NCBI RefSeq assembly: GCF_003334335.1
Contig: NZ_QOWQ01000012.1
Length of the DNA stretch: 64,000 nt
Direction: 5' to 3' (one strand)
Origin: Escherichia coli
GTDB lineage: Bacteria > Pseudomonadota > Gammaproteobacteria > Enterobacterales > Enterobacteriaceae
Shown here: piece by piece, positions 17,851 to 27,685 of the stretch
Numbering within the stretch: the first letter of the stretch is position 1
How the letters are laid out: each line of letters opens with the position of its first letter
Made by a program: the position numbers and the translations under genes
The notes under the pieces: generated by a model
The model's database searches: none
Told to the model about the DNA's origin: nothing
The model's input: only the letters and a program-made list of their open reading frames with translations

Positions 17851-18045
17851 ATGCCTGATGCGACGCTTGCCGCGTCTTATCAGGCCTACAAAAGGTGCCA
17901 GAACCGTAGGCCGGATAAGGCGTTCACGCCGCATCCGGCAATAAGTGCTCCGATGCCTGATGCGACGCTTGCCGCGTCTTATCAGGCCTGCAAAATGTGC
18001 CAGAACCGCGTAGGGCGGATAAGGCGTTCACGCCGCATCCGGCAA
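17851..18045. repeat. BIME: two tandem ~102-bp units, each built from REP palindromes
   Basis: atgcctgatgcgacgcttgccgcgtcttatcaggcct...ggccggataaggcgttcacgccgcatccggcaataagt occurs twice (unit starts about 17851 and 17953) with a few substitutions. Confidence 0.85.
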
Positions 18046-24663: not shown

Positions 24664-25959
24664 GTGCTGGAACGGCTGTCGTGGAAAAGGCTGGTGCTGG
24701 AGCTGCTACTTTGCTGCCTCCCGGCTTTCATCCTGGGTGCATTTTTTGGTTACCTGCCCTGGTTTTTGCTGGCATCGGTAACAGGACTGCTTATCTGGCA
24801 TTTCTGGAATTTATTGCGCCTTTCATGGTGGCTGTGGGTGGATCGCAGTATGACCCCGCCACCGGGGCGTGGTAGCTGGGAACCGCTACTATACGGCTTA
24901 CACCAGATGCAGCTGCGAAATAAAAAACGCCGCCGTGAACTGGGCAATCTGATTAAACGCTTTCGTAGCGGCGCGGAGTCGCTGCCCGACGCGGTGGTGC
25001 TGACCACGGAAGAGGGCGGTATTTTCTGGTGTAACGGTCTGGCGCAACAAATTCTTGGTTTGCGCTGGCCGGAAGATAACGGGCAGAACATCCTTAACCT
25101 ACTGCGTTACCCGGAGTTTACGCAATATCTGAAAACGCGTGATTTTTCTCGCCCGCTCAATCTGGTGCTCAACACCGGGCGGCATCTGGAAATTCGCGTC
25201 ATGCCTTATACCCACAAACAGTTGCTGATGGTGGCGCGTGATGTCACGCAAATGCATCAACTGGAAGGGGCGCGGCGTAACTTTTTTGCCAACGTGAGCC
25301 ATGAGTTACGTACGCCATTGACCGTGTTACAGGGTTACCTGGAGATGATGAATGAGCAGCCGCTGGAAGGCGCGGTACGCGAAAAAGCGTTGCACACCAT
25401 GCGCGAGCAGACCCAGCGGATGGAAGGACTGGTGAAGCAATTGCTGACGCTGTCGAAAATAGAAGCCGCACCGACGCATTTGCTCAATGAAAAGGTTGAT
25501 GTGCCGATGATGCTGCGCGTTGTTGAGCGCGAGGCTCAGACTCTGAGTCAGAAAAAACAGACATTTACCTTTGAGATAGATAACGGCCTCAAGGTGTCTG
25601 GCAACGAAGATCAGCTACGCAGTGCGATTTCGAACCTGGTCTATAACGCCGTGAATCATACGCCGGAAGGCACGCATATCACCGTACGCTGGCAGCGAGT
25701 GCCGCACGGTGCCGAATTTAGCGTTGAAGATAACGGACCGGGCATTGCACCGGAGCATATTCCGCGCCTGACCGAGCGTTTTTATCGCGTTGATAAAGCG
25801 CGTTCCCGGCAAACCGGCGGTAGCGGATTAGGGTTAGCGATCGTGAAACATGCTGTGAATCATCACGAAAGTCGCCTGAATATTGAGAGTACAGTAGGAA
25901 AAGGAACACGTTTCAGTTTTGTTATCCCGGAACGTTTAATTGCCAAAAACAGCGATTAA
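24664..25959 (+). CDS. phoR: phosphate regulon sensor histidine kinase PhoR
   Basis: 431-aa ORF with GTG start; N-terminal TM segments, PAS-like region, H-box (…[11 protein letters not shown]…) and ATPase G-boxes. Confidence 0.96.
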
Positions 25960-25984
25960 TCCGCCTTTGTCATCTTTTATTGCC

Positions 25985-26015
25985 ATAAGCCAGTCGATGC
26001 TGGCTTATTTTCTTT
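25985..26015 (+). terminator. intrinsic terminator after phoR
   Basis: ataagccag-(loop)-ctggcttat hairpin followed by tttctttg. Confidence 0.65.
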
Positions 26016-26365
26016 GCAGTCAAAATACGGGCGTTAGATTTTACAACGGTTGGTGATTTTTTGTTCGCATGATTAGCCATGTCTTTTTCACGGAAATAGT
26101 GTTTTATACTGGTTGGTGATTTCTTATCGCTATATACCTCTGGTTTTTAGATCCCTCCTTGCTTTAAAACGTTATAAGCGTTTAAATTGCGCTTCAGGTG
26201 CTGTCATACTGACTGCATTAACGCGGTAAATCGAAAAACTATTCTTCGCCGCGCCTGGTTGGGAGTATTTCCCGCTAAAATTGTTTAAATATACCGCTGT
26301 ATCATCCCCAGGGATTGGCACAAAAATTTAACGTTACAACACCACATCCACAGGCAGTATGATTT

Positions 26366-27685
26366 ATGACCCATCAATTAAGATCGCGCGATATCATCGC
26401 TCTGGGCTTTATGACATTTGCGTTGTTCGTCGGCGCAGGTAACATTATTTTCCCTCCAATGGTCGGCTTACAGGCAGGCGAACACGTCTGGACTGCGGCA
26501 TTCGGCTTCCTCATTACTGCCGTTGGCCTGCCGGTATTAACGGTAGTGGCGCTGGCAAAAGTTGGCGGCGGTGTTGACAGCCTCAGCACGCCAATCGGTA
26601 AAGTCGCTGGCGTACTGCTGGCAACGGTTTGTTACCTGGCGGTGGGGCCGCTTTTCGCTACGCCGCGTACAGCTACCGTTTCCTTTGAAGTGGGGATTGC
26701 GCCGCTGACGGGTGATTCCGCGCTGCCGCTGTTTATCTACAGCCTGGTCTATTTCGCTATCGTTATTCTGGTTTCGCTCTATCCGGGCAAGCTGCTGGAT
26801 ACCGTGGGCAACTTCCTTGCGCCGCTGAAAATTATCGCGCTGGTCATCCTGTCTGTTGCCGCTATTGTCTGGCCGGCGGGTTCTATCAGCACGGCGACTG
26901 AGGCTTATCAAAACGCTGCGTTTTCTAACGGCTTCGTTAACGGCTATCTGACCATGGATACGCTGGGCGCAATGGTGTTTGGTATCGTTATTGTTAACGC
27001 GGCGCGTTCTCGTGGCGTTACCGAAGCGCGTCTGCTGACCCGTTATACCGTCTGGGCTGGCCTGATGGCGGGTGTTGGTCTGACTCTGCTGTACCTGGCG
27101 CTGTTCCGTCTGGGGTCAGACAGCGCGTCGCTGGTCGATCAGTCTGCAAACGGCGCTGCTATTCTGCATGCTTACGTTCAGCACACCTTTGGCGGCGGCG
27201 GTAGCTTCCTGCTGGCGGCGTTAATCTTCATCGCCTGCCTGGTAACGGCAGTTGGCCTGACCTGTGCTTGTGCAGAATTCTTTGCCCAGTACGTACCGCT
27301 CTCTTATCGTACGCTGGTGTTTATCCTCGGCGGCTTCTCGATGGTGGTTTCTAACCTCGGCTTAAGCCAGCTGATCCAGATCTCCGTACCGGTGCTGACC
27401 GCTATTTATCCGCCGTGTATCGCACTGGTTGTATTAAGTTTTACACGCTCATGGTGGCATAATTCGTCCCGCGTGATTGCTCCGCCGATGTTTATCAGCC
27501 TGCTTTTTGGTATTCTCGACGGGATCAAAGCATCTGCATTCAGCGATATCTTACCGTCCTGGGCGCAGCGTTTACCGCTGGCCGAACAAGGTCTGGCGTG
27601 GTTAATGCCAACAGTGGTGATGGTGGTTCTGGCCATTATCTGGGATCGCGCGGCAGGTCGTCAGGTGACCTCCAGCGCTCACTAA
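26366..27685 (+). CDS. brnQ: branched-chain amino acid transport system II carrier
   Basis: 439-aa polytopic membrane ORF; matches recalled BrnQ. Confidence 0.94.

Follow-up and report, generated by a model that had tools for sequence, protein, structure and literature searches.

The spacer that separates phoR from brnQ in Escherichia coli (406 bp) carries an imperfect direct repeat, and the question raised by this locus is whether the repeat represents a pair of binding sites for a brnQ regulator, a relic of a duplication, or something else. The former two readings were offered in the original prediction, which was made from the sequence of a 64,000-nucleotide stretch of E. coli DNA (the window). 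Both strings quoted there are indeed found where they were placed, and the start-to-start distance of 63 bp is confirmed, with the repeat reaching further leftwards than was first described: it comprises an ungapped pair of 24-nt segments, TTTTACAACGGTTGGTGATTTTTT and TTTTATACTGGTTGGTGATTTCTT, identical at 20 of the 24 positions. The proposed six helical turns between the copies, with a promoter within reach, also agree with the data (63 bp; −157..−134 and −94..−71 from the brnQ start site). The exact 12-mer core of the repeat, GGTTGGTGATTT, occurs twice in the 64-kb window, both times in the repeat, and has no further exact match there.

Positions are given below in window coordinates (window position = NC_000913.3 position minus 393,225), and the features of the region are collected in Table 1. 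A 521-nt query around the repeat matched 5,425 of the 5,426 complete E. coli genomes with 95–100% identity, between phoR and brnQ; the region is absent from one of the 5,426 genomes, and one copy is plasmid-borne. In the E. coli sequence NZ_CP136025.1, the query matches only from about 26010 on and at two places in the genome, which suggests a rearrangement or insertion just 3' of the phoR terminator. No gene is annotated between phoR and brnQ in the MG1655 RefSeq record or in 5,424 E. coli genomes, and the open reading frames of the spacer comprise 30–49 aa only. The terminator that had been noted after phoR is present as a 10-pair stem (25985–26008) followed by TTTCTTT; the stem is kept in orthologs while its loop and flanks differ. 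For the comparative analysis, the brnQ loci of 80 species of Enterobacteriaceae were fetched (Salmonella is not among them), and the 71 spacers of comparable length were aligned.

Table 1. Features of the phoR–brnQ region (window coordinates; offsets are relative to the brnQ transcription start site).
Feature	Position	Strand	Remarks
phoR stop codon	25957–25959		
phoR intrinsic terminator	25985–26016	+	stem-loop ATAAGCCAG-TCGATG-CTGGCTTAT, then T tract
Repeat copy 1	26039–26062		−157..−134
Conserved distal element	26046–26089		−150..−107; consensus ACGnCTGnTGnTTTTTTGTTCGCATGATTAGCCATGnGTTTTTC; overlaps copy 1; core near-invariant
Putative Lrp-consensus-like site 1	26065–26079	−	TGGCTAATCATGCGA; 4 mismatches in E. 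coli, mean 4.6 over 71 species
Neutral spacer	26090–26131		−106..−65; 42 nt
Putative Lrp-consensus-like site 2	26097–26111	+	TAGTGTTTTATACTG; 2 mismatches, mean 3.9 over 71 species
Repeat copy 2	26102–26125		−94..−71; in fast-evolving spacer of fixed length
Putative Lrp-consensus-like site 3	26128–26142	+	CGCTATATACCTCTG in E. coli; 5 mismatches
brnQ promoter block	26140–26195	+	nearly invariant; 88% identity
GATC in promoter block	26150–26153		
−35 TTGCTT	26159–26164	+	fits the published start site
Promoter-spacer inverted repeat AAACG-N7-CGTTT	26167–26183		within the 18-nt −35/−10 spacer
−10 TAAATT	26183–26188	+	
G+C-rich discriminator GCGCTTC	26189–26195	+	
brnQ transcription start site (A)	26196	+	Kim et al. 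2012, coordinates converted
Leader hairpin H1 (5'-proximal)	26197–26219	+	pair 7–23 AU:25, GC:18, GU:7
Leader hairpin H2	26222–26253	+	stem CGCGG/CCGCG; nearly invariant 22-nt loop TAAATCGAAAAACTATTCTTCG
Leader hairpin H3	26256–26277	+	GGGA/TCCC core; lost in the Kosakonia group
CA-rich element ACAACACCACATCCACAGGCAG	26336–26357	+	just 5' of the start codon; 95% identity, invariant in 71 species
brnQ coding sequence	26366–27685	+	ATG at 26366

The rarity of the repeat depends on the yardstick. When the 406-bp spacer was shuffled with its dinucleotides preserved, an exact 12-mer pair arose in 0.4% of 5000 shuffles, and in 500 shuffles no 24-nt window exceeded 19 matches, as compared to the 20 observed. 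In the real sequence of the 64-kb window, five other exact 12-mer direct pairs lie within 150 bp (a REP-like cluster being excluded), while shuffled windows contain 0.64 exact 12-mer direct pairs each. The repeat is thus unlikely when set against shuffles and less special when set against real sequence, where it is an event of about one in 10 kb rather than a rarity. One of the five background pairs, TTGCGCCGCTGA, is located inside brnQ (26697 and 26817, 120 bp apart). At 17851–18039, two long direct copies (about 85 nt, 102–104 bp apart), G+C-rich and palindromic, look like a REP/BIME cluster and yield 51 of the 57 exact 12-mer pairs of the window. Weak direct similarities were also seen between the promoter spacer and the leader, namely between CGTTATAAGCGTTTAAAT (26170–26187) and CGCTAAAATTGTTTAAAT (26273–26290) and between AACGTTATAA (26168–26177) and AACGTTACAA (26330–26339).

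Comparison of the species demonstrated that the two copies do not form a conserved pair: their in-register identity is 20/24 in E. coli only, 17/24 in three other Escherichia species (where the longest exact run between the copies does not exceed 6), 10–14/24 in the closest Citrobacter, and 3–13/24 elsewhere (3–14/24 over the 67 non-Escherichia species), so that repeat similarity drops with phylogenetic distance from E. coli. The 12-mer is polymorphic even within E. coli; in strain A32, copy 1 reads GGTTGCTGATTT, which breaks it. The 3' half of copy 1 is located inside the conserved distal element, and its GGTTGG part is specific to E. coli; the first 10 nt of copy 2 overlap the putative Lrp-like site 2. 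Since the stretch harbouring copy 2 (−106..−65) is no better conserved in distant genera than the four-fold synonymous sites of brnQ, used as the neutral yardstick (48% vs 54% identity to E. coli), copy 2 is unconstrained sequence, and constraint in copy 1 is limited to its T-rich 3' part, within the larger element.

These data bear on both readings of the original prediction. A true operator pair for an E. coli regulator, six helical turns apart, would be in line with the exact 12-mer at 63-bp spacing, with its improbability against spacer shuffles, and with the placement of the copies 5' of a weak promoter in a region bound by Lrp in vitro. However, the GGTTGG core of neither copy is conserved, not even in sister Escherichia species, the region of copy 2 evolves at the neutral rate, the A32 strain lacks the intact 12-mer, the motif has no further exact match in the window, and five other such 12-mer pairs are present in the window; we therefore consider this reading improbable. 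A tandem duplication of about 63 bp, of which the repeat would be the relic, fares even worse. The direct orientation and the similarity over about 24–30 nt are as expected for a duplication, but the 63-nt register and every inter-anchor distance are identical in 70–71 of the 71 species whether the copies are alike or not, the DNA between the copies has no second-copy similarity, and the copies are most alike in the youngest lineage (E. coli), not in the oldest one. The register and the spacer length being the same in 70 of the 71 species, no lineage gained 63 bp, and duplication is thereby refuted, with only a negligible probability left to it. A dispersed intergenic repeat (REP/BIME, ERIC, or an IS remnant) is not involved either, both conserved blocks being found at one place per genome in 5,424–5,425 genomes.

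How the likeness arose can be tentatively traced in outgroups, where copy 1 reads ACGTCTG(G/C)TGATTTTTT, as compared to ACGGTTGGTGATTTTTT in E. coli, copy 2 being CTGGTTGGTGATTTC. An adjacent double substitution of TC to GT in the E. coli copy 1 would have raised its likeness to copy 2, either by chance or through a templated (misalignment) mutation, the two T-rich segments having been similar beforehand, and it is from this one double substitution that we would infer a templated origin. The two T-rich segments would lie two Lrp periods apart, and the weak underlying likeness of the copies (T-run, CTG, T-run) may reflect a 31-bp periodic pattern. The best explanation of the direct repeat is that of a lineage-specific by-product within the brnQ cis-regulatory region, not a functional pair. 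Of the suggested regulator sites, the part that stood is the placement in a brnQ regulatory region with Lrp binding in vitro; the two copies as a conserved pair did not.

What is highly conserved is the DNA around the repeat, a rigidly spaced control region of brnQ. Identity to E. coli over the 63 non-Escherichia species, for which the four-fold sites give 0.54, is 0.82 for the distal element, 0.48 for the spacer at −106..−65, 0.88 for the promoter block, 0.74 for the first 88 nt of the leader, and 0.95 for the CA-rich element before the start codon. From −148 to +87 there are practically no indels in the 71 species, and every inter-anchor distance is identical in 69–71 of them; the neutral spacer comprises 42 nt in 71/71 species, while the 3' part of the leader varies in length from 48 to 67 nt over the same species. 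The distance from the core of the distal element to TATAAGCGTTT is exactly 116 bp in all 71 loci where both are recognisable, including those with much longer spacers, whose extra DNA is located in the phoR terminator, 5' of the distal element, or in the 3' part of the leader. In Escherichia sp. MOD1-EC7003, about 750 bp are inserted in the phoR terminator loop (between the window equivalents 25993 and 26000), and 3' of this insertion the brnQ module is intact with the 116-bp distance retained. The distal element itself is a single-copy sequence, present at one place per genome in the E. coli genomes examined. As judged from the alignment, the 42-nt stretch between the distal element and the promoter is shown to mutate at about the neutral rate with its length never changed, and such a combination of conserved spacing and free sequence is the pattern predicted by a wrapped or looped nucleoprotein complex.

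The start site of brnQ, whose mapping had been recommended, is available from published work. The supplement of Kim et al. (2012) lists one brnQ start site (NC_000913.2 position 418645, 54 reads, 170-nt 5' UTR) and quotes ...TTGCTTTAAAACGTTATAAGCGTTTAAATTGCGCTTCA as the sequence 5' of it, and mapping in K. pneumoniae gave the homologous start position and a 5' UTR of 179 nt. The block −56..−4 is almost invariant across more than 25 enterobacterial genera, reaching 99% column identity at −26..−7. As a promoter scan found none of consensus grade in the phoR–brnQ spacer, TTGCTT-18-TAAATT, from which transcription starts at 26196, is a weak promoter, and this weakness suggests that brnQ transcription may depend on an activator. 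TATATA at 26131 was rejected as an alternative −10, its last position being not conserved and the published start being about 60 nt downstream; it fits a Lrp-like site better. The block also contains a single Dam site (GATC, −46..−43), which is invariant in 71/71 species, and its discriminator, GCGCTTC in E. coli and GCGCCCC in most genera, resembles those of stringently controlled promoters; these traits hint that binding may be sensitive to methylation or that ppGpp/DksA may exert control.

Lrp is the only protein for which binding to this spacer is documented. The supplement of Shimada et al. (2015) reports an in vitro genomic-SELEX peak of Lrp at 418534, in the phoR>brnQ spacer, which corresponds to about 26085 in the window (about −111), between the repeat copies. 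In the same table, the classical ilvIH sites, a positive control, appear at 85536, about 94 bp before ilvI, and hence the SELEX coordinates are usable to roughly 100 bp. The Lrp scan that the original prediction advised, performed with the degenerate SELEX consensus YAGHAWATTWTDCTR, returned sites in the spacer: a match with 2 mismatches (TAGTGTTTTATACTG at 26097) and conserved matches at 26128 and 26065. Over the whole window, matches with at most 3 mismatches are not enriched (87 vs 77 expected). Matches were also scored over the alignment, about 480 position–strand combinations giving a background mean of 8.7 mismatches (sd 1.5). The best conserved match is site 3 (26128), with a mean of 3.5 mismatches and at most 3 in 61% of species; in most genera it reads TGGCATATTGTTCTG or TAGCATAATCATCTG, with 2–3 mismatches. 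Two further Lrp-like matches fall into the leader, at 26232 (+36, mean 4.1 mismatches) and 26263 (+67, mean 4.5).

The spacing of these matches is regular. The upstream sites (−131, −99, and −68) are 32 and 31 bp apart, the leader matches are 31 bp apart, and all five positions lie within about 1.5 bp of one helical phase. The same layout of phased sites is found in promoters of the ilvIH type. We suggest that several Lrp dimers would bind phased sites centred at about −124, −92, and −61, roughly three helical turns apart, and possibly also sites in the early leader, and would wrap the DNA into a single assembly through which the output of the weak promoter is adjusted to the leucine (feast–famine) status. 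One wrapped complex would explain why distances are conserved rather than the sequence of the spacer. To this reading as a whole, a phased Lrp-type nucleoprotein complex on the weak brnQ promoter with the E. coli repeat as its by-product, we assign a probability of about 0.6. Several observations temper it. In E. coli itself, sites 3 and 1 deviate from the degenerate consensus at 5 and 4 positions, respectively. The best-conserved blocks resemble Lrp sites poorly, and the invariance of −56..−4 exceeds what a degenerate binder needs, so that another factor or constraints intrinsic to the promoter probably contribute; besides, the two leader matches (+36 and +67) fall on RNA hairpin elements, and selection on the RNA may be the reason for their conservation. 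The literature searched contained no in vivo Lrp ChIP result for brnQ and no report of lrp-dependent brnQ expression, and the supplements of Ziegler (2023) and Adams (2021) have no brnQ entry.

The same conservation pattern can be read in favour of a rigid module that serves another regulator instead of Lrp, or Lrp together with a further factor. In that case, an activator or repressor bound at −150..−107 would reach the promoter through a DNA loop, and AAACG-N7-CGTTT / CGTT-N6-CGTT in the promoter spacer would be its operator. Conservation of the distal core (TTTTTTGTTCGCATGATTAGCC) and of the promoter-spacer element goes far beyond the needs of Lrp sites, both match the Lrp consensus poorly, and the fixed 116 bp suits looping as well as wrapping. 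Nevertheless, none of the E. coli operator consensus sequences compared by eye fits, the elements have no paralogous copies elsewhere in the genome, and Lrp binding is the one documented at the brnQ spacer; we regard a module with another or an additional factor as a minority possibility, though a serious rival. The candidates rejected by eye against their consensus sequences included the Pho box, PurR/MalI/LacI-type operators, CRP, IHF, Fur, CpxR, PhoP, and PmrA; sigma-54 (TGGCAC at 26317; GG-N-GC spacing in the promoter block) was rejected in the same way. Much less probable is that the conserved upstream blocks are transcribed, as a gene for a small protein or RNA on either strand or as a longer brnQ leader starting from an upstream promoter such as TATATA at 26131. 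This reading may be derived from the three-base periodicity of variable positions (26050/26053/26056) in a minus-strand frame, MRTKNHQPL, and from the anti-SD-like CCCTCC at 26154. Yet this frame has ATT or GTT as its start codon in 11 of the 71 sequences, neither its length nor its sequence past residue 7 is conserved, the start or stop of the frames MANHANKK... and MISHVFF... (MISHVFFTEIVFYTGW) is lost in other genera, and small proteins on both strands were rejected on these grounds. The blocks also have no Rfam match and no terminator, only one start site is reported, in two species, and the −10 candidate at 26131 has an unconserved final T and is the better fit to a Lrp-like site.

Apart from the putative Lrp complex, the brnQ leader has conserved features of its own. 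Folded singly, the leaders of most species form the same three hairpins (mean z −1.7 to −2.0). In the indel-free MAFFT alignment, 73.9% of cells are paired in the named three-hairpin structure vs 39–48% with slid partners (37–48% over both alignments), the covariation score is 0.207 vs 0.085–0.132, and the cells changed on both sides of a pair number 82 vs 14–58; realignment with a covariance model gave the same figures and did not raise the support. The best-supported hairpin is H2, with 84% of cells paired and UA:47 vs CG:21 at one pair, its stem being CGTGG/CCACG or GTGTGG/CCACGC in other species. G.U pairs are only somewhat more frequent than A.C pairs (10.3% vs 6.9%), a weak preference for the plus strand. 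Because RNAalifold found no consensus structure when applied to the entire leader (185 nt, 70 species) and the Kosakonia group has lost H3, support for the three predicted hairpins is moderate and confined to the first 85 nt. An Rfam 15 scan of 25500–26900 at E ≤ 1 gave nothing beyond a chance match to a tmRNA fragment (E 0.8, 8.4 bits). The leader has no terminator, and the only leader-peptide candidates in the 5' UTR are three TTG-initiated ORFs of 9–16 aa, not rich in branched-chain amino acids (BCAA). The 5' arm of H1 is formed by a perfect Pho half-box, CTGTCAT (26201–26207, +6..+12 of the brnQ transcript), with no partner 11 bp away; brnQ adjoins the phoBR operon, and the main text of the PhoB ChIP-seq paper does not mention brnQ.

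At the other end of the leader, the invariant CA-rich element is placed near the ribosome-binding site, as expected for R1 targets of the small RNA GcvB. In published work, brnQ figures among the R1 targets of GcvB, with verification in Salmonella and the status “conserved” for E. coli, and ACAACACCACATCCACAGGCAG is the expected R1 pairing site, through which GcvB would repress brnQ translation after the promoter has acted. An out-of-frame ATG at 26359–26361, 7 nt 5' of the brnQ ATG, is present in Escherichia only, other genera having GTAAGAC and similar sequences at this site; it overlaps the ribosome-binding region, and a short overlapping frame begins there.

These features allow brnQ to be compared with known systems. 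With Lrp promoters that have phased upstream sites (ilvIH as the textbook case; gltBDF, livJ/livK, and yhjE), it shares the combination of a gene for amino-acid metabolism or transport and a weak promoter, as well as the putative consensus-like sites about 31–32 bp apart 5' of the promoter, and ilvIH was recovered by the same in vitro Lrp SELEX screen as the brnQ spacer. The recently described yhjE sets a precedent for a BCAA permease under Lrp control. On the other hand, the best-conserved blocks of brnQ are unlike Lrp sites, and its possible sites reach into the transcribed leader. The literature binding data and the site spacing thus give moderate support to placing brnQ in the class of multi-site Lrp promoters. 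With the transporter mRNAs repressed by GcvB (dppA, oppA, gltI, livJ, cycA, and sstT), brnQ shares the CA-rich element beside the ribosome-binding site, its membership in this class resting on published work, while its 170-nt leader, three conserved hairpins, and invariant 22-nt loop are all unexplained by GcvB targeting. Tandem operators of response regulators, such as the Pho boxes of PhoB, are likewise direct repeats in helical phase 5' of a promoter, but they consist of conserved 7-nt units 11 bp apart, whereas the brnQ repeat has a 63-bp spacing and is not conserved; an operator of this type was therefore rejected. The leader-peptide attenuators of BCAA operons (ilvGMEDA, ilvBN, and leu) resemble brnQ in having a long conserved leader with several hairpins before a BCAA-related gene. 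Attenuation of this kind is nevertheless ruled out for brnQ, as its leader has no ATG-initiated or BCAA-rich ORF and no hairpin that resembles a terminator and precedes a T run.

A bolder version of the Lrp model may be formulated as well. The indel-free module of roughly 235 bp (−148..+87) might be a single wrapped Lrp complex, from an octamer to a hexadecamer, that engulfs the promoter and the early transcribed region; and/or H2 with its invariant 22-nt loop, UAAAUCGAAAAACUAUUCUUCG, might be an undescribed cis-regulatory RNA element sensing a protein, small RNA, or metabolite linked to BCAA supply. We consider this version speculative and rather unlikely. In the literature searched, neither a wrapped Lrp module nor an H2 RNA element was described for brnQ, and Rfam gave no match.

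Taken together, the original observation of the repeat is right, its interpretations as a site pair and as a duplication are unsupported, and its suspicion of a regulator with the advice to scan for Lrp was sound. The repeat is a lineage-specific coincidence, which is not to be annotated as a regulatory element. The literature searched, papers on BCAA transport included, contained no account of the transcriptional control of brnQ, and our best reading is that the brnQ region may work as a multi-site Lrp promoter together with a transporter leader that GcvB targets. Beside GcvB, the conserved hairpins of the leader may provide an additional level of control. For Lrp research, the promoter of brnQ, which encodes the second main BCAA importer, offers a simple testable case, and the neutral drift of 42 nt in more than 25 genera with the distance kept at 116 bp shows cleanly how, in nature, spacing can be conserved while the sequence is free.
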